From Synergistota bacterium (GTDB lineage Bacteria > Synergistota > Synergistia > Synergistales > 79-D21), in assembly GCA_022839995.1 (NCBI GenBank), contig JALHIN010000006.1, forward strand, positions 9,539 through 73,538: a stretch of 64,000 nucleotides of DNA, written 5' to 3'. Position numbers and translations under genes: made by a program. The notes under the pieces were generated by a model. That model made no database searches and had not been told where the DNA came from. It saw only the letters and a list, made by a program, of their open reading frames with translations. Position 1 is the stretch's first letter. Every line of letters begins with the position of its first letter. Shown here piece after piece: positions 21,267-62,575 of this stretch.

Positions 21267-21272
21267 GCCGGG

Positions 21273-21863: not shown

Positions 21864-21877
21864 CGGGAGGTGAGGGA

Positions 21878-22894: not shown

Positions 22895-23222
22895 CAGAAA
22901 CCGGTCGATGGCTGCTCTCGGCGATTACGAGAGCGTCCTTCCCTTTCAGGCGGTCGGTATTGAGCCCCATGTGCTCGAAGACGGATCGGAGACGGAGGCG
23001 AAAATGGTCCTGAACGAACTCGTGCTGAAAAAATACGCCGTGGTCTTCGTCGTCGAGGATTGGTACGAGCGCATGAAGGAACGGATCGAGGAAATCAACG
23101 AAAAGGAAGACACGAGCATCGTTCCCATCCCCGGACTTCGGGGATCGAGAGGCTTGGGGTTCAAGTCGATCAAGTCGAGCGTCGAACGGGCAGTCGGGAT
23201 GGACATTTTTTCCGTGAAGTAA
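22881..23222 (+). CDS. atpF: V/A-type ATPase subunit F
   Basis: About 105-113 aa. The [18 protein letters not shown] motif and operon position support the call. An alternative start is ATG 22908. Confidence 0.85.
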
Positions 23223-23247
23223 TCGGAACAGGTTGGAGGCGATCCAT

Positions 23248-26449: not shown

Positions 26450-26462
26450 GGAGGGCGAACCG

Positions 26463-28200: not shown

Positions 28201-28626
28201 ATGCTGGTCGGGACATTCGAACACAGGCTGGATTCAAAAGGACGCCTTGTGATTCCCGCCCGGTTCCGCGAGGAACTCGGGACCAGCATCGTGGCTTCTT
28301 TCGGGATCGACCGTTGCGTATCCATCTATTCGCTGAAGAGTTGGGAAGGAATTCTGGAAAAACTTCACAACCTGCCCTATTCGAAGGGAAAAACGCGGGA
28401 CCTGATCCGGGTGCTTCTTGCTTCGGCCCACGAACTCCCAATCGACCCTGCCGGTCGTGTCCTGCTGCCGCAATCCCTTCGAGAACAGGCGGGGATCGAC
28501 CAGGAGGTCAGCATCAACGGGGTTCTCGATCATCTCGAAGTTTGGGACTCCGAGGAATGGAATCGCTACAGGACCCGGGTCCTGGAAACCCTGCCGGAAA
28601 TCGCCGAGGAGGTTGACGGATTTTGA
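28201..28626 (+). CDS. mraZ: transcriptional regulator MraZ
   Basis: MLVGTFEHRLDSKGRLVIPARFRE plus a second DxxGR repeat (IDPAGRVLLP). GTGGGAGG lies 8 nt before ATG 28201; the track ORF begins at 28156. Confidence 0.93.
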   Translation: MLVGTFEHRLDSKGRLVIPARFREELGTSIVASFGIDRCVSIYSLKSWEGILEKLHNLPYSKGKTRDLIRVLLASAHELPIDPAGRVLLPQSLREQAGIDQEVSINGVLDHLEVWDSEEWNRYRTRVLETLPEIAEEVDGF

Positions 28627-29543
28627 TCGAGCACACTCCGGTCCTTCTCGAAGAAGTCGTTTCGCAATTGGCCAGGGAGGGGATTCCCTCTTTTGTGGTT
28701 GATGCCACGGTGGGACTCGGAGGCTATTCGGAACGGTTTCTCATCGAGTGGCCTTCCTGTAGGGTTCTCGGGATTGACCAGGACCCCATGGCGCTGGAGC
28801 GGACCGTCGTGCGCCTGTCAAAGCCGATAGAAGAAGGGCGTTTCCGAGTTTGCGCGGGGAATTTCAGGCAGCTGGGGCAATTTGTTAAGGAATCTGGCTG
28901 GGGGATGCCGGACGGGATTGTCTTCGACCTGGGAGTTTCCAACCTCCAGCTCTCCTTGTCGGAGAGAGGATTTTCCTTCCAGGAAGACGGCCCTCTTGAC
29001 ATGAGGATGGGTGCCGGCGAAAAGACCGCAGGAGACTTGCTCAAGGACCTATCGGAAGCAGAACTGCGGAGGCTGTTCCGTGATTATGGCGAAGAACCGC
29101 ATTCCGCGGCGATTGCCAGGGGTATCGTGAAGCACAGGGAGCAGAAAGGTCCCATCATGACGACGGGAGAATTGGTAAACGTGATTCGAACCGTTCTTCC
29201 GGCGCCGTTGCAAAGAAAAATGAACCGGCATCCTGCCCGAAGGATCTTTCAAGCTCTGCGGATCGCTGTCAACGACGAGATGGAGGCCCTGAGGGAGGGG
29301 CTCGACCAGGCAATCCGTTCCGTCAGCGGAAATGGGTGTGTCCTGGTCGTAAGCTATCACTCCCTTGAAGACAGGATCGTCAAGCACGCCTTCAACCAAT
29401 GGGAAACGGAAGGGTTGGGACGCAGGATGCCGAGAAAGGCGATCCAGGCTTCGCCGGAGGAGATCCAGAAAAACTACAAGTCCAGGAGCGCGATGTTGCG
29501 CGTTTTTCGAATGAGCGGTTCGAAGATCGGTCCAGGGAGGTGA
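28623..29543 (+). CDS. rsmH: 16S rRNA (cytosine1402-N4)-methyltransferase
   Basis: HTPVLLEEV, DATVGLGGYS, DLGVSNLQL and SYHSLEDRIVK motifs. The TTG start overlaps the mraZ stop. Confidence 0.95.
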   Translation: MIEHTPVLLEEVVSQLAREGIPSFVVDATVGLGGYSERFLIEWPSCRVLGIDQDPMALERTVVRLSKPIEEGRFRVCAGNFRQLGQFVKESGWGMPDGIVFDLGVSNLQLSLSERGFSFQEDGPLDMRMGAGEKTAGDLLKDLSEAELRRLFRDYGEEPHSAAIARGIVKHREQKGPIMTTGELVNVIRTVLPAPLQRKMNRHPARRIFQALRIAVNDEMEALREGLDQAIRSVSGNGCVLVVSYHSLEDRIVKHAFNQWETEGLGRRMPRKAIQASPEEIQKNYKSRSAMLRVFRMSGSKIGPGR

Positions 29544-40601: not shown

Positions 40602-41502
40602 AAGAAAGCTGAATTGCGCTCTTGAACCGCAGGTCCCTCTTGCTCCCCTGACGACCTGGAAGGCAGGAGGCAACGCAGAAATGTTTTTGGCCCCGCGTAA
40701 TGCCGAAGAGGCACACGGGGCTTTTGCCTTTTGCCGGGAAGAAGGCGTGCCGGTCTGGATGATTGGGGGAGGCAGCAACATCCTGGTTCACCCGGCGGGG
40801 CTTCCCGGACTGACCCTCTGGATGGGGAAGATTAACCGCTTTTCCTGCCTTCCGCGAAAAGATGGATCATTCCTTCTCGAAGCCGATGCGGGATGTTCGA
40901 CCCGCCGCCTGCTTCACTTCTGCCTCACCTACGGGTTCTCCGGCCTGGAATTCGCAACCGGCATCCACGGTAGCATCGGGGGGGCCCTCATGTGCAATGC
41001 CGGAGCGGGCGAGGATTCCATCGGAGAGAGAGTCGAGTGGGTGGAAGCAGTGGAGGGAGACGGAACGCTACGCCGCTGGGACTCCCGTGAACTTTCCTTC
41101 CGGTATAGGTTCAGTTCCCTGCGGGACGGGGTTCGCTTGGTCACCCGCTGTGGGCTTAGGCTCCTGAAAGAAAACCGGGATCTCATCCGAGAGAGGGTCC
41201 AGGGGTTCTGGTCCCTTCGAAAGGGACAACCTCACGGGGCCAAGACGGCGGGCTGCGTTTTCAAGAATCCGGGATCGGGAAGGGAACCCGCAGGGTTGTT
41301 GCTGGACCGGTCGGGATGCAAGGGCATGAGGATCGGGAATGCAAGGGTTTCCCCCCTCCATGCGAATTTTATCGAAAACAGCGGTTCAGCGAGCGCAAGC
41401 GAGATCTGGGAATTAATCCTGGCTTGCCGGCGGAAAGTCTACGAAGCGAGCGGCATCTGGCTGGAACTGGAGGTGAACCTGCTCGGTGGCCCGTGGGACT
41501 AA
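40579..41502 (+). CDS. murB: UDP-N-acetylenolpyruvoylglucosamine reductase
   Basis: FAD-binding PCMH domain (PLAPLTTWKAGG, IGGGSNILV) and C-terminal HANFIEN. Confidence 0.93.
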   Translation: MQWPAALERKLNCALEPQVPLAPLTTWKAGGNAEMFLAPRNAEEAHGAFAFCREEGVPVWMIGGGSNILVHPAGLPGLTLWMGKINRFSCLPRKDGSFLLEADAGCSTRRLLHFCLTYGFSGLEFATGIHGSIGGALMCNAGAGEDSIGERVEWVEAVEGDGTLRRWDSRELSFRYRFSSLRDGVRLVTRCGLRLLKENRDLIRERVQGFWSLRKGQPHGAKTAGCVFKNPGSGREPAGLLLDRSGCKGMRIGNARVSPLHANFIENSGSASASEIWELILACRRKVYEASGIWLELEVNLLGGPWD

Positions 41503-42337
41503 AAGGGGAGGCCCGGGCCGAAAGCTCCTGGTGCTTGCCCTTTTTTTCGGCATCCTCTGCGGGCTGGAAAACCATTACCAACTTCTCCGGCTGGTCGAGC
41601 TGACCATCGAGCCGCCGGAAAGCCTGCCCGACAGCGTCTTGTGGAGTTCGATCGGGAGCCTTTCAAGACGTTTCTGGGTTATCCCCGTGATGAGAAGAGC
41701 TTCGATCGCCCGCGAACTGCAGGAACGCTATCCTGCAGAGATCAGGGTTACGAGCCCCGGGTGGGGGCGCATCGGGATTACCGTGAGGCCCTACCTCCCC
41801 TGGCTTTCCATTTCGTACGAGGGAAAACAATACGTCCTTTCCCTCGAAGGGTTTATCTGGCCCAAAGGATTCTCGGTTGGAGGAGTGAAGCTTCCTGCGG
41901 TAGGGGACCGTTTGCCGGCCTGGGAATGGGAGAAGGGGCTCCTGAATCCGTTTACCGATCCAAATCGGCGGGATTCGGCCGTACAGAAATCCGCCCTTCC
42001 GATCGCGGAAATCGGGCGATGGGAGCAGGGGCTGGCAGAGAAGACCTGGCTGGGGAACCGGGTTCGGACGATGGTTTCCGCAAGGGGCGGACAGCGGGTT
42101 TTGAAGGTGATTGCGCAAAGGAACAATCAAAGGATACAATTGGAATTGAAGGACGATCCAAAAGAATGGGAAGCGGTGTTTGCCGCGGTACGCCGGATCC
42201 TAGGGGATCCGGATTTGTCGAAACAGGGGACATTGCTGATCGATGCGACCTACGAAGGAAAGATCGTTGCACGGATTGTTCCTCCTGACGGAACGGACGG
42301 AAAGCGGCTAAGGCCGGAAGGGAGCGAATCGAATTGA
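41486..42337 (+). CDS. ftsQ: cell division protein FtsQ/DivIB-like
   Basis: Basic N-terminus, one TM (LLVLALFFGILCGL), then a POTRA-like segment. It holds the canonical slot between murB and ftsA. Confidence 0.75.
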   Translation: MARGTKRGGPGRKLLVLALFFGILCGLENHYQLLRLVELTIEPPESLPDSVLWSSIGSLSRRFWVIPVMRRASIARELQERYPAEIRVTSPGWGRIGITVRPYLPWLSISYEGKQYVLSLEGFIWPKGFSVGGVKLPAVGDRLPAWEWEKGLLNPFTDPNRRDSAVQKSALPIAEIGRWEQGLAEKTWLGNRVRTMVSARGGQRVLKVIAQRNNQRIQLELKDDPKEWEAVFAAVRRILGDPDLSKQGTLLIDATYEGKIVARIVPPDGTDGKRLRPEGSESN

Positions 42338-43659
42338 AAGACGAACCCGATCTTCTGGTCGGTCTGGACCTGGGAACAACGAAAATCGCGGTGGTCGTCG
42401 CGGAAGTGGACTCTCGTACCGGCGAGGCCCAGATCATCGGTGTCGGCGAGTCCCCTTCCATGGGAATCCGCAAAGGGATGATCGTGAACCTGGACCAGGC
42501 AACCCGAGCCATCCAGGCTGCGGTTGAAGATGCCGAGAGCATGGTTGGGCTGGGGATCGAAGAAGTCGCGGTGGCCTTCTCCGGAGCAGAATCGGCGAGC
42601 GTTCGAACGCGGGGAATGATCTCTCTCGGTCGTTCCGCTAGACAAGTGATGATCGAAGACGTAGACCGAATCATCGAGGCTGCGCAATCGGAGATCGCCG
42701 TTCCTTTGAATCGCTGCATCCTCCACACGATCCCTGTCGAATATACACTGGATGGGCATCCTGGGATCGACGACCCCTTGGACATGACGGGAGTCAGGCT
42801 TGAGGTGGAACTCCAGTCGATCATCGTTCCGACGGCCGTGATCCAGAATGTCGTGAACTGCGTGAGCAAGGCCGGGCTGGATGTCACCGGGCTGGTCATG
42901 AAGCCCCTTGCAAGTTCCCTGGGATGCCTTTCCAACGAAGAAGCCATGGCAGGGGTCGCTGTTGTCGATTTGGGCGGGGGGACTACGGGGGTCTCGGTTT
43001 TTTCCGAGGGAAGGCCAAGGAGGCTTTCTGTCATTCCTGTGGGAGGCGACCATATCACCAACGATCTGGCCTGTGTGCTGAGGATTCCGATCAGCCGCGC
43101 AGATGTCCTGAAAAAAAGCGTTTCCCTTTCACCGGAAAGCTTCGGGCAAAACGAAAAGATCGAAATCGAAAGCATGGGGAAGATCCTGTCCTTCAGCACC
43201 CGTGAAGTGGTTGAGGTCATCGCCTGCCGGCTTGACGAACTCTTTTCCTCCCTGGTGGAAAACGAACTGAAGGAATCCGGTGTTTCCATGCTGCCGGGTG
43301 GAATTGTTCTGACCGGAGGAGTTTCAAGGTTGGCCGGTCTGGATGCCTACGTGTCGAGACTGCTCGACTTGCCCGTTCGGGTTGCCGGGCCCCTTGACGC
43401 CGGCCGTATGCCTCCCGGTATGGACAGCGAAGAATACGCCAGTGGAGCCGGGATCATTAGGTACGTCCTGGAGAAGGAGCGGAATCCCTACCGGTACATC
43501 GAATCGGACCTCCCTCTTGAAGGATCCGTTTCAGGAGGCCGGATCAGGCGTACGGGCAGGGGAGGCATCAATGCCGGGAACGGAAAGAAACGAGCCGGGA
43601 ACGGGGCACTCAAAGCCGTGATGGAAAATATCCGGAAATCCGTGAAGGATTTGTTTTGA
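42334..43659 (+). CDS. ftsA: cell division protein FtsA
   Basis: Actin-fold motifs VGLDLGTTKIAVVVAE and VVDLGGGTTGVSVF. The TTG start overlaps the ftsQ stop (TTGA). Confidence 0.93.
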   Translation: MKDEPDLLVGLDLGTTKIAVVVAEVDSRTGEAQIIGVGESPSMGIRKGMIVNLDQATRAIQAAVEDAESMVGLGIEEVAVAFSGAESASVRTRGMISLGRSARQVMIEDVDRIIEAAQSEIAVPLNRCILHTIPVEYTLDGHPGIDDPLDMTGVRLEVELQSIIVPTAVIQNVVNCVSKAGLDVTGLVMKPLASSLGCLSNEEAMAGVAVVDLGGGTTGVSVFSEGRPRRLSVIPVGGDHITNDLACVLRIPISRADVLKKSVSLSPESFGQNEKIEIESMGKILSFSTREVVEVIACRLDELFSSLVENELKESGVSMLPGGIVLTGGVSRLAGLDAYVSRLLDLPVRVAGPLDAGRMPPGMDSEEYASGAGIIRYVLEKERNPYRYIESDLPLEGSVSGGRIRRTGRGGINAGNGKKRAGNGALKAVMENIRKSVKDLF

Positions 43660-43689
43660 CCATTCTGGATCCTGCAGGAGGCGAACGGC

Positions 43690-44880
43690 ATGGCCGACAT
43701 TTTTGAAATTGAGAAAGCGAGCCGTCCATTCAGGGAAGTCATCAAGGTGATGGGAATCGGCGGTGGCGGAAACAACGCGCTGAACCATATCGCTCGTAGC
43801 GGGCTTGTCGGCGTGGAGTTCGTTGGAGCCAATACGGACATGGCACACCTTCAGACCTCGGAAGCGGATGTACGGATCGTCCTGGGGAAGGAATTGACCC
43901 GAGGCCTCGGAGCGGGGGCGGATCCAGAGGTCGGGATGAAGGCTGCGAAGGAATCCAGGGAAGAGATTCGCCAAATCCTCGAGGGAACCGATATGGTTTT
44001 TCTGACGGCCGGAATGGGAGGCGGAACCGGAACGGGGTCGACCCCGGTCATCGCGGAAGTTGCGAAGGAAATGGGGGTTCTTGTCGTTGCGGTCGTCACC
44101 CGCCCCTTCTCCTTCGAGGGCAAGAAACGGCTCTTGCAGGCGAAAGCCGGGATCGAAAACCTGAAAGACAAGGTAGACGCCCTGATCGTCATTCCCAATG
44201 ACAAGCTGCTGGAGATTTCCGATTGCAAAACGGCCCTTTGCGATGCCTTCCGGTTGGCGGATGACGTTTTGAGGCAGGCCGTGCAGGGCGTAACCGACCT
44301 GATTTTCCGCCCCGGCCTGGTGAACGTGGACTTTGCCGATGTCCGTACGGTCATGAGCAATGCGGGTTCAGCGATCATGGGGATCGGCGAGGCGGAAGGG
44401 GAGAGTAGGGCAGAAATCGCGGCGAGGGCAGCAATCAATAGCCCCTTGATGGAAACTCAGATGGCCGGAGCAAAGGGAGTCCTGTTCAACGTGACGGGAG
44501 GTCCGAGCCTGGGGATCCACGAGATCAACCAGGCTGCCAACGTGATTACCGAGGCAGCGGACGAGGATGCGACAATCATCTGGGGCAACGTGGTCGATCC
44601 TTCGATGGGGGAGAAGATACAGATAACGGTCATCGCGACCGGTTTTTCGGAACAGGCTGTCGTTCCTGTCCAAACCCGAAAGATCGAGACTGTCCGCAGG
44701 ACTGCAACACCTCAACCGGTTCAGGCGGCAACCCCCCGAGTCAAGAAGAACCGGATCGATCTCGAAGAGGCCGAGGTGCGGTCTTCTTCACAGGAAGAGG
44801 ACCTTTTCAAGATCAGCGGAGTGCCGACGAACCACCTGGATATCCCTTCCGTTATCCGACGGCGGAAGGCTGGAGACTGA
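43690..44880 (+). CDS. ftsZ: cell division protein FtsZ
   Basis: [11 protein letters not shown], the tubulin signature [14 protein letters not shown], and a C-terminal conserved peptide DIPSVIRRR. Confidence 0.98.
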
Positions 44881-44905
44881 CCGGTCGGAGGGGGGCGCCG
44901 GCGGT

Positions 44906-46411
44906 TTGAAGGGATATAGGCGGCTTCCTCCCTATCGTGAAGCTGCCCGGTTCGGCAGAGATTGGGAACCCGTCACCCAAAACGAGGTCAATGTGCTTCC
45001 GCTGCCGCGGGGGGGCGATCCCTCCTGGGCTCTGGTTTTTCCTTCGGATTACGGAACGGGGATTGCGAACCTCGGCTTTCATTACGCGTTTTACCATTTA
45101 AAAAAGTTGGGGGTTGGCGTAGAGCGTTTTTTTCTTTCGCCGATCCTCAACCTTTCCTTGGAGAGCCGCCGTCCCCTGCAGGACTTTCCTATCATCACGG
45201 CGAGTCTCGCCTATGAGCCGGATGCCCTGAACTTTCTTGAAATACTGGCCAAGGCTGGAATCCCGCCAAGGGCAAAAGAGCGAAAGCAAGGAAGGTTCCC
45301 GCTGATCGGAGCGGCGGGGGCTTTTACTTCGATAAACCCGGCGATGTTGCTCGCCGTTGCCGATTTTATCGTGCTCGGGGATGGGGAGCCTGTTATTCCC
45401 CATCTTGTCGGCTGTTTCCGGGGCCAACCTCATGGAGAGGACGGCCGAGATTCGATCCTGGAAGCCCTAGACGAGCACCCTTCCATCCTGGTTCCGGCCT
45501 TGGGTGAGGAGAGGGCGCTTGAGTTTCTCAAAAACGGGACAAAACGAGTCGCAAAGACGCCCTGCCAACAAACCCTGGGACACGGCATCTGGATTTCTCC
45601 GAACTCGGTCTTTGGAAGGACCCTTCTCCTTGAGCTGCAAAGAGGGTGTGCTCGGGGGTGCCCCTATTGCGTTTTGCCTTCCTGCTTTTCGCCCCTCAGG
45701 CAGAGGCCGGTCGAAACGGTAATTGAAACCGTTGAACGTCTTGCCCCGGTGGTTCCTTTTACCCAGGTGGGGCTAGTTACCCCGGAAGCGGGGGATTATC
45801 CGGGGCTGGAACCGTTGCTTGATACCCTTGAAAGGCTGAAGAAAGGGGTTTCGTTTGCCTCCCTGAGGATCGACAACCTGACGAGGAGGATGGTAAAAGC
45901 ACTGAGGGGTTCGCGGCGAGAAAGCCTCACCATCGCACCGGAAGCGGGGTCGGACCGGTTGCGGTTGCGGTGCGGAAAAGCCTTCACAAACATGCAGATT
46001 CTCGACAAGCTTGAAATGGCGTCCAGCGAAGGGATACGAAAAGTGAAACTCTACTTCATGGTAGGGTTACCGACAGAAACGGAAGAGGATCTCATTGCGA
46101 TCGCCACTCTTGCGGAATCGATCCGGAAAGAATTGCGCCTTGCGGTTTCGCTTTCCGTGAACGTCTTTGTTCCCAAGCCGGGAACGCCATGGGAAACCCA
46201 GTCCTTCGTCGGAACCGCGGAGGCAGAGAGTCGGTGTCGCATCTTGAAATCCGCGATCTCGGGAAAATTGGGCAGGAGCTGCGATGTCCGATTTTCGAGC
46301 CTGCGGGAAGCCGAGTTGGAATATCGACTCTCCTGGGGCGGCCCTGAAATCCTGGATTTGATGGAAACCCTTGTTGAAAAAAGAAAAGGGGGGAAAACCA
46401 ATGCTTCCTGA
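44906..46411 (+). CDS. radical SAM protein with N-terminal B12-binding-like/flavodoxin-like region (uncharacterised family, TIGR03960-like by recollection)
   Basis: CxxxCxxC cluster motif CARGCPYC. The N-terminal ALVFPSDYGTGIANLGFHYAFYHL resembles the family signature. TTG start; an alternative in-frame GTG lies downstream. Confidence 0.85.
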   Translation: MKGYRRLPPYREAARFGRDWEPVTQNEVNVLPLPRGGDPSWALVFPSDYGTGIANLGFHYAFYHLKKLGVGVERFFLSPILNLSLESRRPLQDFPIITASLAYEPDALNFLEILAKAGIPPRAKERKQGRFPLIGAAGAFTSINPAMLLAVADFIVLGDGEPVIPHLVGCFRGQPHGEDGRDSILEALDEHPSILVPALGEERALEFLKNGTKRVAKTPCQQTLGHGIWISPNSVFGRTLLLELQRGCARGCPYCVLPSCFSPLRQRPVETVIETVERLAPVVPFTQVGLVTPEAGDYPGLEPLLDTLERLKKGVSFASLRIDNLTRRMVKALRGSRRESLTIAPEAGSDRLRLRCGKAFTNMQILDKLEMASSEGIRKVKLYFMVGLPTETEEDLIAIATLAESIRKELRLAVSLSVNVFVPKPGTPWETQSFVGTAEAESRCRILKSAISGKLGRSCDVRFSSLREAELEYRLSWGGPEILDLMETLVEKRKGGKTNAS

Positions 46412-47159
46412 ATCCGAAGAATGGGAATTGGGGGATGACGAGGCGAACCCCGAGGGGGTGCCCCCGCGTCCGCAGAGGCGTCTACCTTCGCGAAGGAACC
46501 GCAGGAGCCGATCCCGCCGAACGAGTTTCGGTTTCGGCCACTTCATGCTTCCAATTGTAGGTCTCGTGGCTGTCGGAGTTCTTGTTCTCGGAATCCGCCT
46601 TTTCTTCTTCCCGTCTGCCAAGGTCGAAACTCTTCCGATTGTTGCGGAACAGACAGTTGAAAGCGGTTCCGTGACGGTTCAGGAAGGGAGCCGTGCTCCC
46701 TTAAGCGGAGAAGCGGAAGAAACGGTGGTGGCAGTTCCGGAAGGGAGTCCGTTGCCGAAATCGGAATCGACTTCGAAGCCGAAGCCAGCTCAGGAAAAAC
46801 CGGTTGTCAAACCGGTCGCCGTCAAAACCGGAGGAAAACCGGCTGCCGTGTCGGAACCGCAAACGTCGCCGGCCAAGACTGAAACCGAGAAACTGGGCAC
46901 CCAAACAGGAACGGGAGCGGCCGGAAAAGAAACCTGGGGCGTGCAGGTCGGAGCCTTCAAGGAACGCGGGAATGCGGAAAACCTGGTCAAGAAGCTTCGG
47001 CAGGAAGGCTTCAAGGTTGGTACGATCGAGGCGGCAAACGGGGAAACACCGTTGACGAAAGTCGTAGTCCAGGCCGGGAATGAGCGTCTGGCGGCCGAAA
47101 AGCTAGCGAAAGAGCTGGGCGATAAAGGCTATCCCGTTCTGATCGTAAGGACTCGTTGA
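46401..47159 (+). CDS. bitopic SPOR-domain (septal peptidoglycan-binding) protein
   Basis: Acidic/basic N-terminus, one TM (MLPIVGLVAVGVLVLGI), a Pro/Lys/Glu-rich linker and a C-terminal SPOR fold (WGVQVGAFKERGNAENLVKKLRQEGF...). ATG 46401 overlaps the radical SAM stop by 11 nt. Confidence 0.8.
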   Translation: MLPESEEWELGDDEANPEGVPPRPQRRLPSRRNRRSRSRRTSFGFGHFMLPIVGLVAVGVLVLGIRLFFFPSAKVETLPIVAEQTVESGSVTVQEGSRAPLSGEAEETVVAVPEGSPLPKSESTSKPKPAQEKPVVKPVAVKTGGKPAAVSEPQTSPAKTETEKLGTQTGTGAAGKETWGVQVGAFKERGNAENLVKKLRQEGFKVGTIEAANGETPLTKVVVQAGNERLAAEKLAKELGDKGYPVLIVRTR

Positions 47160-47188
47160 AACACACAAGGCGGGTGGAGGTTCTTAGG

Positions 47189-48415
47189 ATGTCCGGTTTT
47201 GCAAAAGAACTGATCTCGAGAAAAGAAGCGATTGAACACGTGGCCGAGGCGTTGGGGTTTCCCTGGCCCTTGAAAACCCGCTCCGTCCCTCTGCAGGAAG
47301 CGATGGGGAAGAGATGCGGTTTGAACCTGGTGTCGCCGGTAGATTATCCTCCCTTCACCCGCAGTACTCGAGACGGTTATGCCTTAAGGTCGGAGGATGT
47401 GGCTGGTGCCTCTGACACGGCTCCGGTGTTCCTTCGGATCACCGGGGAGATCCTGATGGGAGAGCAGACCGAGAAGCGAGTCGCGGAAGGGGAGTGTGTT
47501 CTCGTCCACACGGGGGGAATGATTCCCGAGGGAGCCGATGCGGTTGTCATGGTGGAGGACACGGTGCAGGCAGGAGCCTGGCTGGAAGTTCGAAAGGCTC
47601 TCCAGTCGGGTGAGAATCTCGTTTTCCGCGGGGAGGAAATCCGGCAAAACGAAGTGATCCTGAGTGCGGGTGATCTCGTGGATGACCGGAATGTCGGAAT
47701 TCTGGCGACCTTGGGGATCTGTACGGTTGAACGCCTCGACCTGAAGATAGGCATCCTCTCGACGGGGGATGAGATCGTTCCCGCCGAAACGCCTGTTCTT
47801 CCTCCTGGGAAGATCAGGGACGCGAATGCCTGGTTCCTGGAATTCCTCTTGGCACGGTACGGTTTCCAGGCAAAACGCCTCGGGATCGTGCCGGACATCC
47901 GGGACCGGCTTGGAGAAGCGGTCCGGGAATCCATGGAAGAAAACGACATCGTTCTTTTGAGCGGGGGTTCCTCGGTGAGCGTCAGGGATTTCTGTTCAGA
48001 GATCATGGAAAATCTGCCTCCTCCAGGGCTCCTCGTGAGGGGGATCAACATGAACCCCGGAAAACCGGCTCTCATCGCCGGCTGTATGCCGGAGAGGAGG
48101 CTGCTTTTGGGGCTGCCGGGACATCCCCTCTCCTGTTCCGTCGTTGCGATCACCCTTTTACTCCCGTTGCTTTCGGCACTGGCAGGGGCTCAAAGTCCGC
48201 TGAAAACCTCGGAGGCGGTTTTGGCCGGTGACCTTTTCGGGAAAGCGGGTACGGAAGAATTCGTTCCTGCCTTCCTTTCAGGGGGGCAAGCCAAGCCCAT
48301 GCCGGGTAAATCCGGGTACGTTTCCGTTCTGAAGAATGCGAACGCTCTTGTGCGCCTTGCGGAAAACGAGGAAACGCGCAGGAAGGGAGAGAGAGTGGAG
48401 GTTTTGCAATGGTAA
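47189..48415 (+). CDS. moeA: molybdopterin molybdotransferase MoeA
   Basis: MoeA domains: PFTRSTRDGYAL, VHTGGMIPEGADAVVMVE, LSTGDEI, LSGGSSV and PGKP. ATG 47189 follows GGTGGAGG; the track ORF begins at TTG 47156. Confidence 0.9.
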   Translation: MSGFAKELISRKEAIEHVAEALGFPWPLKTRSVPLQEAMGKRCGLNLVSPVDYPPFTRSTRDGYALRSEDVAGASDTAPVFLRITGEILMGEQTEKRVAEGECVLVHTGGMIPEGADAVVMVEDTVQAGAWLEVRKALQSGENLVFRGEEIRQNEVILSAGDLVDDRNVGILATLGICTVERLDLKIGILSTGDEIVPAETPVLPPGKIRDANAWFLEFLLARYGFQAKRLGIVPDIRDRLGEAVRESMEENDIVLLSGGSSVSVRDFCSEIMENLPPPGLLVRGINMNPGKPALIAGCMPERRLLLGLPGHPLSCSVVAITLLLPLLSALAGAQSPLKTSEAVLAGDLFGKAGTEEFVPAFLSGGQAKPMPGKSGYVSVLKNANALVRLAENEETRRKGERVEVLQW

Positions 48416-50337
48416 GGACTTGCAAGGAACACGTCAGCCTTCCTGAAGCAAGAAAGATCATCCTCGAAGCGGTACGGGAGGCAGGGTTTCCGGAGGTTGC
48501 TCGAATTCCCGCAGAGGAAGGGCTGGGGTTCCTCCTGGCCGAGGATGTCCTTTCACGTCGAAACGTTCCGCACTATGCCGCTTCCGCCGTGGACGGCTTT
48601 GCCCTGAAGTCGGCCGAAACGGGACGTGCGACTCCGGCCACTGTTGTGCGACTCCCCCAGGATCGCTTCCTTTGGGTGAATACCGGCGGCCCCTTGCCGG
48701 ATTGGTGCGATTCCGTGGTGATGGTAGAGGATACCGCCATGGCGGAGAACGGCGATCTCCTCATTTCAAAAGCGCTCCCTCCAGGGGCGAACGTCCGTCC
48801 GGTAGGGGAGGACGTCATGAAAGGGCAGGTCATTGCCCATTGGGGAGAAAGGGTTGACCCTCCCATGATCGCGCTTCTCCTGGGGGCGGGGATCGGAGAG
48901 ATCCCTGTCTTTCGGCTTCCGAGATGCCTTTTCATCCCGACCGGAGACGAGATTTTCCCGGTAAGCGAATGGTTGGAAACCGAAGAGGAACCGAAGGGAA
49001 AAGTTCCCGAAACCAATTCCGCCTTAATAAAGGGGATTTTTAAAGAATGGGGACTGGACCTTGACATTCACCCCGTTTTGCCCGATGCGCCGGACCTCAT
49101 CAAGGAAAAGCTGAAGGCGGCGGCGGAGCGCTACGACCTGGTCCTGATCGGTGCCGGGACGGCGAAAGGGAAAAGGGATCACACAGCCGACGTGATTGCC
49201 TCAGAGGGTGAAATCCTGTTCAGGTGGGTCCGGATGAAACCGGGGCGTCCGGCTCTCTTTGGCAGGATAGAAAAGACCCTGGTCTTCGGAATCCCCGGAT
49301 TCCCCATGTCGGCGGCAGTCGCCGCCTGGAGCCTGGTGGCCCCGGCCACTTTCGCTATGTCCGGTGTGCCGGTCGGTGGGATGGAACCGGAAGAGATCTT
49401 GCGCCGGGCACTGCGGGCACGGGAAGAATTACGATGCGAGATGATGCTGCCCCATTCGTCCCCGGCGGGAACCGAAGAGTGGCTGAGGGTGAAGGCCGTG
49501 GAAGTGGGAGGGAGAAAAACCTTCTGGATCCTTTCTTCCGGGGCATCGACCATGGGGTCGATGCATGAGGCTGACGGGTACGTCCTCTTGCCCTCGGAAA
49601 AGGTCGAATGTCCGAAAGGGACCGGGGTCAACGTGTGGTTCAAACGAACGGTTCCCTGGTCAAGTAGGGCCCTTTTCCAAGGGTCGGACGATCCGGCGTT
49701 TACCCGGATCGTAACGCCCGTTCGGAAAAAGGGGGCCGACCTTGCGATCCGTTCGGTTGGGAGCCTCGGTGGTCTTGCGGCCCTTGCCCGGGGAGAGGGG
49801 CACCTGGCGGCCTGCCATCTGTTGGACGGGAAGACCGGCCGGTATAACGATGCGTTTATCGAGGATCTCTCGAACGGCGATTCCTGGGTTCGAAAGCTCC
49901 TGTATTATCGGGAGCAGGGGTTTTTGGTGGCGAAAGGAAATCCCATGGGACTTTCAAGGATAGAGGACCTCGCAGAAAAGAGGATCCGGATTGTGAACCG
50001 TCAAGCGGGAGCCGGGACTCGGATCCTCCTGGACTGGTTCCTTCTCGAGGCGGGCTTGGACAGGTCGAAGATTGCCGGATACGCGACCCAGGCCATGACC
50101 CACTTGGATGCAGCAAGCCGAGTGGCTTCGGGAGTCGTAGATGCGGCTCTCGGCATTCGGGCCGCTGCGGATGCTTTCGGGCTGGACTTCGTGACGATGG
50201 CCTGGGAACCCTTCGAGCTGGTCATCCCGGAAAAGTACCTGGAGCATCCCGGGGTAAGGGCGGTTCTGGAGTCAATCCGGGATCCCGAGTGGAGAAGTGG
50301 CGTTGAAGCTATGGGAGGATATCGATGGCCGGATTGA
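48409..50337 (+). CDS. MoeA-family protein fused to a C-terminal periplasmic-binding-protein-like (molybdate/tungstate-type) domain
   Basis: The N-terminal ~400 aa are MoeA-like (SAVDGFAL, NTGGPLPDWCDSVVMVE, PTGDEI, PGRP). The C-terminal ~230 aa resemble the PBP-like domain (NRQAGAGTRILLD...AALGIRAAADAFGLDF). Confidence 0.85.
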   Translation: MVRTCKEHVSLPEARKIILEAVREAGFPEVARIPAEEGLGFLLAEDVLSRRNVPHYAASAVDGFALKSAETGRATPATVVRLPQDRFLWVNTGGPLPDWCDSVVMVEDTAMAENGDLLISKALPPGANVRPVGEDVMKGQVIAHWGERVDPPMIALLLGAGIGEIPVFRLPRCLFIPTGDEIFPVSEWLETEEEPKGKVPETNSALIKGIFKEWGLDLDIHPVLPDAPDLIKEKLKAAAERYDLVLIGAGTAKGKRDHTADVIASEGEILFRWVRMKPGRPALFGRIEKTLVFGIPGFPMSAAVAAWSLVAPATFAMSGVPVGGMEPEEILRRALRAREELRCEMMLPHSSPAGTEEWLRVKAVEVGGRKTFWILSSGASTMGSMHEADGYVLLPSEKVECPKGTGVNVWFKRTVPWSSRALFQGSDDPAFTRIVTPVRKKGADLAIRSVGSLGGLAALARGEGHLAACHLLDGKTGRYNDAFIEDLSNGDSWVRKLLYYREQGFLVAKGNPMGLSRIEDLAEKRIRIVNRQAGAGTRILLDWFLLEAGLDRSKIAGYATQAMTHLDAASRVASGVVDAALGIRAAADAFGLDFVTMAWEPFELVIPEKYLEHPGVRAVLESIRDPEWRSGVEAMGGYRWPD

Positions 50338-51809: not shown

Positions 51810-52685
51810 ATGCGGGTCATCGGGTTTCTCGAGGGGAAGAAATCGGCGGGCGGATTATCGATGATCTACCTCCACCTGGGGAGCAGGGGAGATTGCCTGG
51901 TGAACGGGAAATCAGCCGAGATTTTTGGTTCCGGCCCAGGTTTCCTGGAAGACCTGGGGGAGGGACAATGGCAGATCCTGTTTTCTTCAGATAGTCCAAT
52001 TCAGGAAGGGCATTTCATCTCCCTCGAAAAGGACGGCCCGGTTCTTCTGGTCGAAGAACCTCTTGAAAAATGCTTCCGGCTGAAGCCGATCAAGGGAGGA
52101 TTCGTATCGCTTTCTCAGAAAGCAGCACTTCAAAGGCCCATCAAGGTTGGGGTCCTCACCGTCAGCGATAAGGGAAGCCGGGGGGAAAGGGTCGACACGG
52201 CGGGTCCGGCACTGGAGGAACTGGTCATTCCTCTTGGAGCGGTTGTTTCCAGGCGGGCCATTGTCCCGGATGAGAGGGCCCTTATTGCCGAAACCCTCCG
52301 GGACTGGGCGGACCGGGAAAGGCTCAATCTCGTCCTCGTCACGGGCGGGACCGGGCTTTCCGGAAGGGATGTCACTCCGGAAGCCCTGGTGGACGTAGGG
52401 GACAGGATCGTCCCCGGGCTCGGGGAAGCGATGCGGAGGAAAACCGAACCCCTGTTTGACCGTTCGATCCTAAGCCGTGCTCTCGCGGTCACCCGAGGCA
52501 GCTGCCTGCTGATCTCCTTTCCTGGAAGTGAAAGAGGGGCACGCCAGTGTTTTGATGCAATCGGAGGCGTTTTACGGCACGCCGTCGAAATCCTGAACGG
52601 CTGGGAAGGAGATTGCGCCTTGCACGGCCATTCTCACACCTGGAAGAAGGGGTGCCATGCCGGAGACGACAGGTTCCTTCGTTGA
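51810..52685 (+). CDS. fusion of an uncharacterised N-terminal domain (MOSC-like?) with a MoaB/MogA molybdopterin-binding domain
   Basis: The C-terminal ~170 aa show IKVGVLTVSDKGSRGERVDTAGP...VLVTGGTGLSGRDVTPEA, a MoaB/Mog fold. I cannot confidently assign the N-terminal ~115 aa. There is a Cys/His-rich tail. Confidence 0.8.
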   Translation: MRVIGFLEGKKSAGGLSMIYLHLGSRGDCLVNGKSAEIFGSGPGFLEDLGEGQWQILFSSDSPIQEGHFISLEKDGPVLLVEEPLEKCFRLKPIKGGFVSLSQKAALQRPIKVGVLTVSDKGSRGERVDTAGPALEELVIPLGAVVSRRAIVPDERALIAETLRDWADRERLNLVLVTGGTGLSGRDVTPEALVDVGDRIVPGLGEAMRRKTEPLFDRSILSRALAVTRGSCLLISFPGSERGARQCFDAIGGVLRHAVEILNGWEGDCALHGHSHTWKKGCHAGDDRFLR

Positions 52686-53550
52686 AAAGGTCGTGATCAT
52701 CACCGGGATGTCTGGGGGAGGGAAGTCCACTGCCCTCCACATCCTAGAAGACCAGGGCTTTTTTGCCATCGACAACATCCCCCCTTCTCTCCTGCCCCAG
52801 CTTGTCGAAGTGCTGGGGAAGCACCGTGCAGCGGTCCTTCACGGAGTTGCGGCGGTTGTCGACATTCGGGGAGACGAACTCTTGAGGGATCTCGAAGCAG
52901 TGCTGGACAGCCTGAGGCGAAGGCTGGCAAGCGTCAAGCTGATCTTCATGGATGCGTCTGATTCCGCTTTGATCCGGCGTTACGAATGCACGAGGAGGCG
53001 CCATCCCTTGGGGCCCGGTCTTTCGACGCTGGAGGGCATTCAGAAGGAAAGGGAAAGCCTGGCCCCGCTCAAGGAAGCCGCGGACGTCGTCCTCGACACG
53101 ACGGGTTTGAACCTTTCCGATTTGAGGGGGCGTGTTCTCGAAAGCCTTGGAACTCCTCCCGGGCGCTTGACCGTGTTCCTGACCTCCTTTGGCTACAAGC
53201 ACGGGATCCCCCAGGATTGCGACTATCTCGTGGACGTTCGGTTCCTCACGAATCCCTATTACGAACCAGACCTGCGAGCCATGAGCGGGAAGGATTCGGC
53301 TGTAGCCGACTACATCTTCAAAGCCTCGAGCGCTGCGACCGATTTTCTCTTGAGGCAACGAGATCTCTTCGAGTTTATCTTCCCTCTGTACGAGGGGACG
53401 GGGAAGACACAGATCCACATCGCGGTCGGATGCACGGGGGGAAGGCACCGTTCGGTAGCAGTGGTGGAAGCATTCGCCTCCATGCTGGAACTGTCGGGAT
53501 ATTCCTGCGTCGTCCGCCATCGTGATATCGAAAGGGAGCAGACATGGTAA
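52657..53550 (+). CDS. rapZ: RNase adapter / nucleotide-binding protein RapZ (YvcJ)
   Basis: Walker A ITGMSGGGKSTA, FAIDNIPP, DVRFLTNPYY, and a C-terminal GCTGGRHRSV motif. Confidence 0.93.
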   Translation: MPETTGSFVEKVVIITGMSGGGKSTALHILEDQGFFAIDNIPPSLLPQLVEVLGKHRAAVLHGVAAVVDIRGDELLRDLEAVLDSLRRRLASVKLIFMDASDSALIRRYECTRRRHPLGPGLSTLEGIQKERESLAPLKEAADVVLDTTGLNLSDLRGRVLESLGTPPGRLTVFLTSFGYKHGIPQDCDYLVDVRFLTNPYYEPDLRAMSGKDSAVADYIFKASSAATDFLLRQRDLFEFIFPLYEGTGKTQIHIAVGCTGGRHRSVAVVEAFASMLELSGYSCVVRHRDIEREQTW

Positions 53551-54659
53551 CCACGGAATGGCTGGGTCCATTTTCGATCGGGCTGCTGATCGGGGGGGGT
53601 GCGGTTTTTATCTGGATGCGGCGTTTGATCCGGAAAAGACGCGGCTTAGCCGAAATCATGTCCAGTGCCATCGGTTTCCGGCTGAGTGCGGGGCCCCGTG
53701 TGGTCGCCCTGGGAGGAGGAACGGGCCTTTCCACCCTGCTCAAGGGGTTGAAGGCCTACACGCGCAATATAACGGCCATTGTCACGGTGACGGACGAAGG
53801 GGGCAGCTCGGGTCGTCTCAGGATCGAGTGGGGTGTTTTGCCACCCGGTGATGTCCGAAACTGCATCATTGCCCTGGCGGAGAACGACAGCGCCTTGAAC
53901 AGGCTCCTAAGCTTTCGTTTCGACAAGGGAGAATTGGCGGGACATAGCTTGGGCAACCTCGTGCTGCTGGCGGCAACAGAACTGGCTGGGGATTTTCGCC
54001 TGGCCGTGGAAGAGATGAACAAGCTCCTCGCGATCCGCGGCAGAGTCCTGCCTGTTACGACTGAGGCCGTGTCGATCGCAGGAGTGGATGCGAAAGGGAA
54101 CCGGTACCGCGGAGAGCTGGATGTGGCCCGTCATGGCCGTGAACTCACCGAAGTGCATCTGGAACCCGCGGATGCCAAGCCCCTGCAGGAAGTGGTGGAC
54201 TCAATCCGGGAAGCCGAGGTGATCGTGCTGGGTCCCGGTAGCCTGTTTACAAGCATTCTGCCGAACCTGCTCGTTCAGGGAGTGGCAGAAGCGGTACGGC
54301 TGGCCGAAGCCCCGAAAATCTACGTTGCGAACGTGATGACCCAGCCAGGGGAAACGGACGGTTTTTCCGTTTACGACCATGTCCGATGGATCAAGGAAGT
54401 CCTCGGGCAATACCCTGATATCGTCCTTGTCAATGAAACGGAAGTTCCGAAGGAAATCCTGCGGCGGTACCGCGAAACGGGATCCGAACCCGTGATCCTG
54501 AAGGAACGGGAGGAAGCGCGACTGACGAAATCGAGAGTCCAGGTGGTTCGAGGAGATTTCCTGGAAATCACGCCGGAGGGGCTTGTCCGGCATCAGACCC
54601 AGAGGGTTTCGGAAGCGATCATGAAGGTGGCGCGTGAGGCGAAAGAACTGGGACGATGA
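53544..54659 (+). CDS. yvcK: YvcK/CofD-like gluconeogenesis/cell-shape factor with N-terminal TM segment
   Basis: VVALGGGTGLSTLLKGLK, VTVTDEGGSSGRLR and PPGDVRNC motifs. An extra hydrophobic N-terminus (FSIGLLIGGGAVFIWM) is present. Confidence 0.9.
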   Translation: MVTTEWLGPFSIGLLIGGGAVFIWMRRLIRKRRGLAEIMSSAIGFRLSAGPRVVALGGGTGLSTLLKGLKAYTRNITAIVTVTDEGGSSGRLRIEWGVLPPGDVRNCIIALAENDSALNRLLSFRFDKGELAGHSLGNLVLLAATELAGDFRLAVEEMNKLLAIRGRVLPVTTEAVSIAGVDAKGNRYRGELDVARHGRELTEVHLEPADAKPLQEVVDSIREAEVIVLGPGSLFTSILPNLLVQGVAEAVRLAEAPKIYVANVMTQPGETDGFSVYDHVRWIKEVLGQYPDIVLVNETEVPKEILRRYRETGSEPVILKEREEARLTKSRVQVVRGDFLEITPEGLVRHQTQRVSEAIMKVAREAKELGR

Positions 54660-55579
54660 ACGCGATCGCGGAAAAACTTTGGGATGAATGGCTGACCGCT
54701 CCCATTAACGGGGCAGGAGAGGCTGACGCAGAAGTCGGTGCCCTGCTTTTGTCCATGAAAGAAAGGGAAGAGAAAGGCTGGACGGCCCTCTTCTCCAGGC
54801 GGATTTTTCTGTTCAGACGCCTGCATCAACTCTGGAATGCGGGGACTTGGAAAGAGGAGGGAGAGCTTGGGTCTTTCCTGAAACTTCCACCGGATCTCAA
54901 GGGGGTTCCATCGCTCGAAATCCCGCGATCCATGGTGGAAAAAGCACTGGGGAATCTTGGCCTTTCGACGGAAAGCACTGTGGGGGTCCGGTCGGCCTGG
55001 CTGAGAGGGATCTTGGGAGGGCTGGGCTCCCTGTACCTTCCCCAGACAGGGTATTATCTCGTGTTCCGGTTCGAAAAAAAGAAACGGCCGGTCGGGGAGA
55101 AAGCCGCCCAACTGCTGAAGATCGCCGGAATTAGGTTTACCGAGCGGCTCCGTTCTTTTCATGCCGATCTGCTGATCCGTGACCAGGGCCAAATCGTTGC
55201 TTTTCTTTCGGGCATCGGGCTCGTCGGAGCCAGTTTGGCACTTGAAGAAAGGTCATTGATGCGGTCCATGAGGGACAGGGCGAACAAGCTGGTCAATTGC
55301 GATTCGGCAAACATCCGGAAAAGCCTCGACGCTGCAGAGCGGCAGATGGAACTGGCCGAACGGGTTTGCGCGTCCGGCCTGTTCGAACGGTTGGCTCCTT
55401 CCTACCGGGAGCTCGTGACGGCAAGGCTGGAAAATCCGAGCGTGTCCCTTCGCGAGCTGGGGCAACTACTCTCGAGACCCGTGACGAAAAGTACAGTAGA
55501 ATATAGATGGAGCCGCTTGGGGAGACTTTTGGAGAACACCGTGAAGGGGGATGGTTGCCATGTACCTTGGGAAAGCTGA
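54656..55579 (+). CDS. whiA: DNA-binding protein WhiA
   Basis: Degenerate LAGLIDADG-type scaffold plus a C-terminal HTH (SLRELGQLLSRPVTKSTVEYRWSRL). It holds the conserved rapZ-yvcK-whiA position. Confidence 0.88.
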   Translation: MNAIAEKLWDEWLTAPINGAGEADAEVGALLLSMKEREEKGWTALFSRRIFLFRRLHQLWNAGTWKEEGELGSFLKLPPDLKGVPSLEIPRSMVEKALGNLGLSTESTVGVRSAWLRGILGGLGSLYLPQTGYYLVFRFEKKKRPVGEKAAQLLKIAGIRFTERLRSFHADLLIRDQGQIVAFLSGIGLVGASLALEERSLMRSMRDRANKLVNCDSANIRKSLDAAERQMELAERVCASGLFERLAPSYRELVTARLENPSVSLRELGQLLSRPVTKSTVEYRWSRLGRLLENTVKGDGCHVPWES

Positions 55580-61318: not shown

Positions 61319-62575
61319 TTAAAGATTTCTCTTGTACTGTTTTAACCTTTTCAGAATTATATCATAATCCTTGCCGACGATAATCGTCGCATGGGTAGCC
61401 CCCCGGTTCGGGCGGACGAGGTTTGCAGGAACGCCGCAGAGCTCCCCTAGTGCCCTTGCATTGGCGAGAACCTGGGCTGAGGGATTCTCCGGGTGGGCAA
61501 TGTTGGTGTATCGGTAATCGAAATGCTTGGCATTCCCAAGGAAAGCCACGTCAATTCCGAGGCGCTGCAGGTGTTCCGAAAAAGCCTGGCTGATACCCTT
61601 GACTCCGCAGCCGTTCAGGACCGCGACCTGTCCCTTGATTCTATCGAGGATGGCATCGGCTGGGACGAGAGCCTCCTCCGGGGGCCTTTCTCCTTTGTCT
61701 CCGCTGACGGGTATCGGAGGGGTCGTCAGGAATTCCGAGGCAAGGGCGATATCTCCGAGCCAATAGCTGATTCCATCGATCATGGCAGCTTTTCCCGGCA
61801 TCGTTTCGAACGAGAATCGGCTTCGGTCGAGGTCCTTCAGGTAATTGACCATCTGGATGGCCTGAGTGGGCTGAATTTCCGTCTGGAAGAAACGGGTCGC
61901 TTCCTCCACGATTTGCGGAAGCCTGGTTACGGTCTCGGGCTCTCGGAGCTTGTTCAGGACTTCTTTCAGGAAAAGCTGCTGACGTTGAATGCGGCCGATG
62001 TCTCCGAGAGCATCGTGGCGGAAGCGGACGAATTCCAGCGCGGTCTTCCCGTTTAATGTCTGGCGCCCTGCCGGGATGTCGATGTAGAGCCCCCCGGCCC
62101 GGTCGGTATAGCGAAGCCGTTTGGGAACGTCGACCGTTACTCCTCCCAGGAGATCGACCAGCTTCGGGAAGCTCTGGTAGTTGACGATCACGGAATAGTG
62201 AAGGGGAATTCCAAGGAAATTCGAGACCGTGGAACGGAGAAGTTCAATCCCGCCGTAGGCGTAGGCGTGGTTGAGCTTCTGCCAGCCATGTTTCTCGATC
62301 TGAACTCGGAGGTCTCGCGGAAGGGAAAGCACCTTGACGAACCGGTCATCGATATTGATCGCGACGACGGCGATCGTATCGGAACGGTGGGATCCCTGAA
62401 CATCATCGATTCCCACGGCAAGGATGTTGATATTGCCGGTTAAGGCGTCGTGCTCGAAACTTTTTTCGATCTCCTGCGATCCAGGGGAAACGATCGTGTG
62501 CATTCGCCAGGCGACCCCCAAGGCGATTGAAAGCGCGGAGAGAGAGAAAAAAAGGATTAGGCGGGCTTTTTTCAA
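61319..62575 (-). CDS. LytR-CpsA-Psr (LCP) family protein with C-terminal LytR_C-like domain
   Basis: N-terminal TM, then NILAVGIDD...HRSDTIAVVAIN...VLSLPRDL...KLNHAYAYGG. TTG start 7 nt after GGAAGGTGA. Confidence 0.9.
   Translation of the reverse strand: MKKARLILFFSLSALSIALGVAWRMHTIVSPGSQEIEKSFEHDALTGNINILAVGIDDVQGSHRSDTIAVVAINIDDRFVKVLSLPRDLRVQIEKHGWQKLNHAYAYGGIELLRSTVSNFLGIPLHYSVIVNYQSFPKLVDLLGGVTVDVPKRLRYTDRAGGLYIDIPAGRQTLNGKTALEFVRFRHDALGDIGRIQRQQLFLKEVLNKLREPETVTRLPQIVEEATRFFQTEIQPTQAIQMVNYLKDLDRSRFSFETMPGKAAMIDGISYWLGDIALASEFLTTPPIPVSGDKGERPPEEALVPADAILDRIKGQVAVLNGCGVKGISQAFSEHLQRLGIDVAFLGNAKHFDYRYTNIAHPENPSAQVLANARALGELCGVPANLVRPNRGATHATIIVGKDYDIILKRLKQYKRNL

Follow-up and report, generated by a model that had tools for sequence, protein, structure and literature searches.

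A stretch of 64,000 nucleotides from a Synergistota bacterium (GenBank assembly GCA_022839995.1, contig JALHIN010000006.1, positions 9,539 to 73,538 of the forward strand), hereafter the window, carries a complete dcw (division and cell wall) cluster of genes, in which ftsZ is followed by a gene for a radical S-adenosylmethionine (radical-SAM) enzyme and then by one for a SPOR-domain protein. Our comparison of gene neighborhoods indicates that in multiple phyla ftsZ and the radical-SAM gene constitute a conserved, selected gene pair that closes the dcw cluster on its 3' side, and that this pairing is specific to one branch of an uncharacterized radical-SAM superfamily. In the same comparison the SPOR protein, or MltG in its place, emerges as a third member specific to Synergistota, and the molybdenum cofactor (Moco) genes further downstream as bystanders. 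An Fe-S/SAM enzyme stands beside ftsZ in all of our sampled Synergistota genomes and also in some members of two or more further named phyla, and this linkage leads to a concrete and cheap hypothesis, namely a radical-SAM-dependent modification of FtsZ. Few bacterial proteins have been studied as much as FtsZ, yet we know of no enzyme dedicated to its modification. Surveys of the dcw cluster center on its classical genes. The literature that we searched yielded no paper naming TIGR03960, TIGR03936 or PF19864, two irrelevant matches for DUF2344, and none linking a radical-SAM gene to ftsZ or the dcw cluster. We regard the enzyme as a diverged form within a known but uncharacterized family; its genomic context is conserved and appears not to have been described previously. 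A related precedent is SCO2606, likely a radical-SAM gene, which adjoins the Streptomyces mre cluster and is co-distributed with that cluster in actinobacteria (PMC4255298).

Conservation of the gene pair within and beyond Synergistota

When two motifs of the subfamily were scanned against GTDB, with each species represented by one genome, they recovered 75 Synergistota loci and one unrelated MiaB (L080, from Myxococcales), which is an ordinary member of that family and was discarded. The closest homologues of the window protein are likewise all from Synergistota, including Aminiphilus, Thermanaerovibrio, Acetomicrobium and Thermovirgaceae. Analysis by tblastn and open reading frames (ORFs) placed ftsZ directly upstream of the radical-SAM gene in 72 of the 72 Synergistota loci with at least 1300 nt of upstream DNA. 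This adjacency is constant despite the enzymes being only 40-50% identical to each other, and the gap between the two genes in other Synergistota is mostly 0-48 nt. Of the 76 usable loci, 72 have a SPOR protein as the next gene downstream, and a hidden Markov model of the family made from its C-termini matches 72 of 77 downstream proteins. In one clade of three loci (L069, at 9468-10508, L071 and L072) its place is taken by MltG/YceG (PF02618, E 7e-65), a bitopic peptidoglycan enzyme that acts as an endolytic transglycosylase. The sole Synergistota locus without a recognizable gene after the radical-SAM gene is L009, where an ORF at 9541-10893 looks like an antisense artefact; this locus may be rearranged or misassembled.

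The preliminary description of this DNA had proposed a division-associated unit of the enzyme and a septal peptidoglycan reader, and had named, as one of two findings that would refute it, a lack of conservation of the adjacency with SPOR/ftsZ in related genomes. The adjacency is conserved across Synergistota, and the connection with division genes is genuine and extends further than had been proposed, recurring as it does in other phyla; its conserved core, however, is ftsZ and not SPOR. Pairing with the SPOR protein as a unit did not hold up, as the downstream gene varies outside Synergistota and is MltG in one Synergistota clade. Nor did the tight coupling of the two genes, since the overlap of the radical-SAM stop with the SPOR start is confined to the window's own clade, where the 11-nt ATG/TGA overlap and the purine-rich run before it are kept in all seven members, while elsewhere in the phylum some 0-90 nt separate the two genes.

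The genes beyond the SPOR gene are less constant. In the window the pair is followed on the same strand by five Moco genes in the order moeA, moeA-PBP, moaA, moaC and moaB. About 13 Synergistota loci have moaA, moaC and moaB but lack the moeA pair, and four (L028, L052, L055 and L064) lack the moa block altogether, yet all of these loci retain ftsZ-radical-SAM-SPOR. Because rapZ-yvcK-whiA directly follow the SPOR gene in Synergistota devoid of the moa block, the ancestral order appears to have been dcw-ftsZ-radical-SAM-SPOR-rapZ-yvcK-whiA.

When 1.84 billion cluster representatives were searched with the Synergistota profile, the Synergistota subfamily scored 487-719 bits and was followed, after a gap, by many relatives; 2,629 representatives reach E <= 1e-30. 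For each of ten relatives scored against known families, TIGR03960 was the best match (130-434 bits). As a broad alignment of 133 sequences was too diverse for a metagenome scan, a motif-selected subset was used in its place, and this yielded 80 more loci at 28-36% protein identity, which are those most similar to the query and not a random sample. Gene calling in them was heuristic. In a distance-based (neighbor-joining) tree the canonical TIGR03960 proteins, which are associated with DUF2344, form a clade split from all others in 100 of 100 bootstraps. Among the loci outside Synergistota, the gene lies directly after ftsZ in 18 of 28 non-canonical cases and in none of the 28 canonical ones with enough flanking sequence (Fisher p = 1.2e-7); three further non-canonical loci show a truncated ftsZ at the contig edge. 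The linkage was confirmed in one metagenome-assembled genome (MAG) of Acidobacteriota and one of Deltaproteobacteria. On this comparative evidence, linkage to ftsZ marks the DUF2344-less branch in Synergistota, Acidobacteriota, Desulfobacterota and other lineages, and none is seen in the canonical branch.

The ftsZ-linked relatives from Acidobacteriota, Desulfobacterota and other lineages share with the window protein the place after ftsZ, the order of domains and the lack of DUF2344. They are 28-36% identical to it and about 550-610 aa long, most retain a C-terminal extension, often with a Cys motif, and they score 294-473 bits on TIGR03960, with two of the nine tested lying above its cut-off. 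They lack a SPOR partner, and the genes that follow them include those for RtcB, thioredoxin, cytochromes c3, a PMT_2 glycosyltransferase (in Acidobacteriota) and others, with no common partner. No moa genes were found beside the ftsZ-linked relatives in other phyla. On a metagenome contig of 1.55 Mb (L100) an ftsZ-linked gene (5899-7632, 577 aa, 414 bits on TIGR03960) is directly followed by a canonical radical-SAM-DUF2344 fusion (7829-10354, 841 aa, 772 bits, also matching TIGR03936), and this tandem implies that the two are distinct paralogues with distinct jobs.

The enzyme and its canonical sister family

The window protein can be placed in the radical-SAM superfamily by motif, by PF04055 (68.7 bits against a gathering score of 29.5) and by predicted fold, and cleavage of SAM is predicted. 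The CX3CX2C motif is the site that binds the radical-SAM [4Fe-4S] cluster, and its three residues C248, C252 and C255 are the sole invariant cysteines, both among the 71 homologues from Synergistota and among 133 relatives drawn more widely. As these are the only invariant cysteines, an auxiliary cluster of the methylthiotransferase type is excluded. A comparison with the known families showed that: 1) the best NCBIfam match is TIGR03960 (200.6 bits, E 4e-59), with which the protein shares PF19864, the CX3CX2C motif and the KLYFMxGLPxE, APExGS and FVPKPxTP motifs. 2) This score is far under the family cut-off of 462.3, and the match spans positions 31-511 of the 605 in the profile, with the last ~95 missing; the one canonical member scored, the fusion protein of L100, reaches 772 bits. 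3) A C-terminal CxnCx2CGxC motif occurs in 17 of 37 members of the canonical clade and 19 of 45 members of a mostly ftsZ-linked clade, as against none of 17 in the clade of the window protein, which has evidently lost it. 4) The canonical genes adjoin DUF2344, RNase E/G and rodA, whereas the window gene follows ftsZ and has no DUF2344 fused to it, adjacent to it or within 8 kb. The earlier label of "TIGR03960-like" is thus right as to the nearest family, but membership in TIGR03960 proper is rejected on score, C-terminus and partner, and from its sequence the enzyme is best described as belonging to a DUF2344-less, C-terminally short sister branch of the TIGR03960 superfamily. Identity as a methylthiotransferase is likewise rejected, both the auxiliary cysteines and the TRAM domain being missing and the family scores being 23-38 bits against cut-offs of 251-357. 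Classification by hidden Markov models returned no family of known function, in keeping with the earlier statement that the family has no assigned function.

The preliminary description had also seen a flavodoxin- or B12-binding-like region at the N-terminus. A Rossmann-like domain (PF19864) is indeed present there; the B12-binding domain PF02310, however, is undetected in the window protein by Pfam scan and only faint in some relatives. The same scan gave no match to UPF0004, to TRAM or to any other recognizable RNA-binding module. An AF2 model built on the 71 homologues (pLDDT 91.4, pTM 0.90) shows alternating beta-alpha elements at residues 40-190 followed by the radical-SAM barrel. The nearest solved folds are those of MgmA, MtaB, MiaB, AprD4, TsrM and RimO (TM-scores 0.5-0.58, 13-17% identity, Foldseek probability 1.00), so that the modeled fold resembles cobalamin binders such as MgmA, TsrM and TokK as well as the cobalamin-free AprD4. 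MgmA (PDB 9ccb) is the best of these by fold (Foldseek E 1.3e-16, TM-scores 0.58/0.68) and also the best PDB match by sequence (4.5e-12, 17% identity), the sequence match being confined to the radical-SAM core; the two proteins share the succession of a Rossmann-like domain and a radical-SAM barrel. MgmA is a cobalamin-dependent radical-SAM methyltransferase that C-methylates a glutamine side chain of methyl-coenzyme M reductase. MiaB, MtaB and RimO are similar in architecture and fold (TM-score ~0.5) but carry an N-terminal three-Cys auxiliary cluster and a TRAM domain, both of which the window protein lacks. MiaB and MtaB act on tRNA, and RimO acts on ribosomal protein S12. The window protein has no transmembrane (TM) segment, and neither a membrane anchor nor an amphipathic segment is present in its model; as an Fe-S/SAM enzyme without TM segments it is predicted to be cytoplasmic.

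The canonical members are larger, with 600-900 aa, and in 24 loci DUF2344/TIGR03936 is either fused to them or encoded next to them. Neither the window nor any of 79 Synergistota loci has a match to DUF2344, in a search whose positive control found those 24. Other neighbors of the canonical genes include RNase E/G in seven loci, M50 peptidase in four and rodA in three. The DUF2344 protein of Lutispora thermophila (L161:7812-8513), modeled at pLDDT 94.2, matches the pseudouridine synthases TruA, TruB, Pus10, Pus3 and Cbf5 (E down to 3.5e-8, TM-score ~0.6), and on this model DUF2344 would adopt a pseudouridine-synthase fold. In DUF2344 an SHLD motif is also invariant, and it resembles the catalytic-Asp motifs found in pseudouridine synthases. 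The modeled fold together with the RNase E/G neighbors suggests that the canonical TIGR03960/DUF2344 system may act on RNA.

The SPOR-domain protein and candidate functions of the pair

The downstream protein consists of a basic tail, one TM helix (approximately residues 48-70), a linker rich in Pro, Glu, Lys and Ser, and a C-terminal SPOR domain, which is periplasmic. This is the bitopic layout of the proteobacterial SPOR divisome proteins FtsN, DedD, DamX and RlpA. Membership in the first two families was rejected, the protein being far below their cut-offs (29.3 bits against 107.65 for FtsN, TIGR02223; 24.7 against 150 for DedD, NF008641) and having only architecture in common with them. 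Apart from the SPOR domain, the TM helix is the most conserved part of the protein. Its motif is Synergistota-specific and among 69 aligned Synergistota orthologues retains F at 0.91, G at 0.97, P at 0.99 and A at 1.0; the medians for the cytoplasmic tail in this alignment are 20 aa in length and +5 in net charge. SPOR domains bind denuded septal glycan and localize to the septum (PMC6895207), which for the present protein we infer from the family alone. A radical reaction on septal glycan, as suggested in the preliminary description, is topologically implausible, because the enzyme is cytoplasmic and the SPOR domain periplasmic.

The reading that we prefer, although we hold it with somewhat less than even confidence, is that the enzyme works in the cytoplasm and uses radical chemistry to modify FtsZ or some other early component of the divisome. 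It is preferred because ftsZ is the sole invariant partner, no RNA-binding module is present, and the closest folds include the protein modifiers MgmA and RimO; it also counts in its favor that SPOR and MltG, which follow the gene in Synergistota, are envelope and division proteins. The tight spacing implies that the radical-SAM gene is co-transcribed with ftsZ, and co-transcription would mean that the enzyme is made in a fixed ratio to FtsZ. The enzyme would direct the 5'-deoxyadenosyl radical at a cytoplasmic macromolecule tied to the Z-ring, of which FtsZ itself or another early divisome protein would be the likeliest, and the likeliest chemistry would be a C-H functionalization such as C-methylation. 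The SPOR protein would be neither substrate of the enzyme nor reader of its product, and would instead represent a separate FtsN/DedD-like component of the divisome that binds septal peptidoglycan and shares the transcription unit in Synergistota. A bolder and rather unlikely version is that the ftsZ-linked enzymes are dedicated divisome maturases that install a radical post-translational modification (e.g. C-methylation) on FtsZ or an FtsZ-binding protein. We regard with similar reserve the idea that such maturases could provide a new chemical layer of Z-ring control common to Synergistota, Acidobacteriota, Desulfobacterota and other, mostly anaerobic, lineages.

Several observations weigh against modification of FtsZ or its partners. 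We know of no modification of FtsZ, and methylation as the chemistry is only a guess because PF02310 is undetected. Among the non-canonical relatives, 10 of 28 lie away from ftsZ, including a Thermotogaceae member, and the metagenome loci had been picked by their similarity to the query. Gene clusters of the dcw type also hold genes without a role in the divisome, RsmH/MraW being the standard example. Furthermore, the canonical sister family is coupled to RNase E/G and to a domain modeled with the pseudouridine-synthase fold, and the tRNA modifiers MtaB and MiaB match the window protein in fold almost as well as MgmA, which makes RNA a plausible class of substrate.

Given this coupling of the canonical branch to an RNA-type module (DUF2344, RNase E/G), an RNA-modifying role is the most serious rival. 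On this account, which is possible though on the unlikely side, the enzyme would be a housekeeping modifier of tRNA, rRNA or a ribosomal protein, kept in the dcw operon for growth-coupled expression and with no direct role in division. In addition to the coupling with DUF2344 in 24 loci and with RNase E/G in seven, the predicted fold of DUF2344 and the fold matches to MtaB, MiaB and the ribosomal-protein modifier RimO fit this account, and rsmH at the 5' end of the window's own dcw cluster (28623-29543) provides a precedent. RsmH/MraW likewise depends on SAM for the modification it makes and is conserved within the dcw cluster, but it differs in being a classical, non-radical methyltransferase, in its position at the 5' end and in its known RNA substrate, 16S rRNA. 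Against an RNA-modifying role, the ftsZ-linked branch lacks DUF2344, TRAM and other recognizable RNA-binding modules, L100 holds both paralogues side by side, which implies separate jobs, and the gene is kept specifically beside ftsZ while the genes downstream of it are reshuffled. If this rival were nevertheless true, it would supply a first function for the TIGR03960 superfamily, and should the adjacency be merely regulatory, it would, with RsmH as the first, provide a second case in which a modification enzyme is hard-wired into the operon for division.

A radical-SAM enzyme with an effect on division is already known in E. coli QueE, which binds the divisome and blocks division (PMC4974570, PMC11142719). 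QueE, however, belongs to an unrelated radical-SAM family, has its primary role in queuosine synthesis and is not encoded beside ftsZ, and its effect on division is independent of catalysis on a divisome substrate.

That the substrate is a membrane lipid or a lipid-linked cell-wall precursor (undecaprenyl-phosphate or lipid II) on the septum's cytoplasmic side, with the enzyme functionally coupled to SPOR or MltG, we consider improbable. Weak profile matches to lipid-modifying families of the B12 type, namely TIGR04072 (ladderane lipid, 2e-10) and HpnJ (3e-4), would agree with such a role, but they cover the generic radical-SAM core only and fall far below the cut-offs. Likewise, the envelope proteins downstream in Synergistota, with the strikingly conserved TM helix of the SPOR protein, the occurrence of the canonical paralogue near rodA in three loci and M50 peptidase in four, and the PMT_2 glycosyltransferase of Acidobacteriota are compatible with a lipid substrate, yet the envelope partners are not conserved outside Synergistota and the enzyme model offers nothing by which to bind a membrane.

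The adjacency could also be an inherited gene order without functional meaning, given that dcw order is exceptionally stable and that loci of one phylum are not independent observations. We judge this to be quite improbable, in that the pair persists where flanking genes have been inserted, deleted or replaced, is present at 28-36% protein identity in several phyla, and, within the family, is confined to a single branch (18 of 28 loci against none of 28). Finally, that the enzyme belongs with the five same-strand Moco genes which directly follow the radical-SAM-SPOR pair, MoaA being itself a radical-SAM protein, and not with ftsZ, is effectively refuted: many Synergistota loci that keep ftsZ-radical-SAM-SPOR do without the moa/moeA block, and no moa genes accompany the ftsZ-linked relatives of other phyla.

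Organization of the window and neighboring genes

The dcw cluster lies on the + strand from mraZ at 28156 through ftsZ, in the order mraZ, rsmH, ftsI, murE, murF, mraY, murD, ftsW, murG, murC, murB, a gene in the position of ftsQ, ftsA and ftsZ; the ftsZ product scores 423 bits on TIGR00065 (cut-off 295). The layout given earlier for the genes that follow, with a gap of 25 nt after ftsZ, a protein of 501 aa with the motif CARGCPYC, an overlap of 11 nt and a bitopic SPOR protein, was correct in all its coordinates (see table). The TTG at 44906 is the sole in-frame start 5' of the family-invariant E27 of the radical-SAM protein. Just 5' of the SPOR ATG at 46401 is a purine-rich AAGGGGGG; an alternative TTG start at 46371 would extend the overlap with the radical-SAM gene to 41 nt. 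A scan of 42000-48500 found no promoter-like site, and no terminator-like site was found in the ftsZ-radical-SAM or radical-SAM-SPOR spacer; the terminator-like sites that were found all lie inside coding sequence and are no more numerous than in shuffled sequences. There was no Rfam match near these genes.

Table. Features of the window, with gene orders at selected loci outside the sampled Synergistota genomes
Feature	Position	Strand	Description	Basis
V-type (A/V) ATPase operon	18678-27089		just upstream of the dcw cluster	
FtsQ-position gene	41486-42337		283 aa	
ftsZ	43690-44880	+	directly upstream of the radical-SAM gene	TIGR00065; Pfam Tubulin, FtsZ_C
ftsZ-radical-SAM spacer, 25 nt	44881-44905	+	holds GGAGGGGGG, a Shine-Dalgarno-like run	read from sequence
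Radical-SAM ORF, 501 aa	44906-46411	+	TTG start, TGA stop at 46409-46411	
N-terminal Rossmann-like domain (Radical_SAM_N2), residues 82-197	45149-45496	+		PF19864, E 1.4e-22
Radical-SAM core, residues 243-402	45632-46111	+	KLYFMxGLPxE and APExGS motifs	PF04055, E 9e-19
CX3CX2C motif, residues 248-255	45647-45670	+	CARGCPYC; C248, C252, C255	read from sequence
Overlap of radical-SAM stop and SPOR ATG, 11 nt	46401-46411	+		read from sequence
SPOR-domain protein	46401-47159	+	bitopic, 252 aa from ATG	PF05036
TM helix of SPOR protein	46542-46610	+	motif FG.F.LP....A.GLL..GVKLFF	69-orthologue alignment
SPOR domain, residues 176-245	46926-47135	+		PF05036, E 8.9e-13, 48.8 bits (cut-off 21)
First MoeA paralogue	47156-48415		between the division genes and moaA-moaC-moaB	
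Second MoeA paralogue	48409-50337		as above; fused to a PBP-like domain	
rapZ, yvcK (CofD-like), whiA	52657-55579		after the Moco block	
LCP (LytR-CpsA-Psr) gene	61319-62575	-		
L081, hot-spring enrichment			ftsA-ftsZ-radical-SAM-RtcB; ftsZ stop abuts radical-SAM start	
L082, Thermotogaceae			radical-SAM relative without ftsZ link	
L083, deep "Synergistota" MAG			ftsZ-radical-SAM-PNP-SIR2-SPOR	
L084			ftsQ-ftsZ-radical-SAM-thioredoxin	
L085, Firmicutes-like, with DUF881/DUF1290			ftsA-ftsZ-ftsZ-radical-SAM	

At L085 the radical-SAM gene is preceded by tandem FtsZ-family genes at 4449-5633 and 5826-6956. The gene in the position of ftsQ in the window has no Pfam match at E <= 1e-5, POTRA and FtsQ_DivIB_C both being undetected, and its counterparts in three Synergistota loci that were read (L001, L002 and L004) are likewise without a Pfam match. 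The first MoeA paralogue scores almost equally on MoeA (230 bits) and Glp (220 bits), below the cut-offs of both; we take Glp to be an FtsZ-binding, gephyrin-like protein of the divisome. The likelier start of this paralogue is the ATG at 47189, which is preceded by GGTGGAGG.

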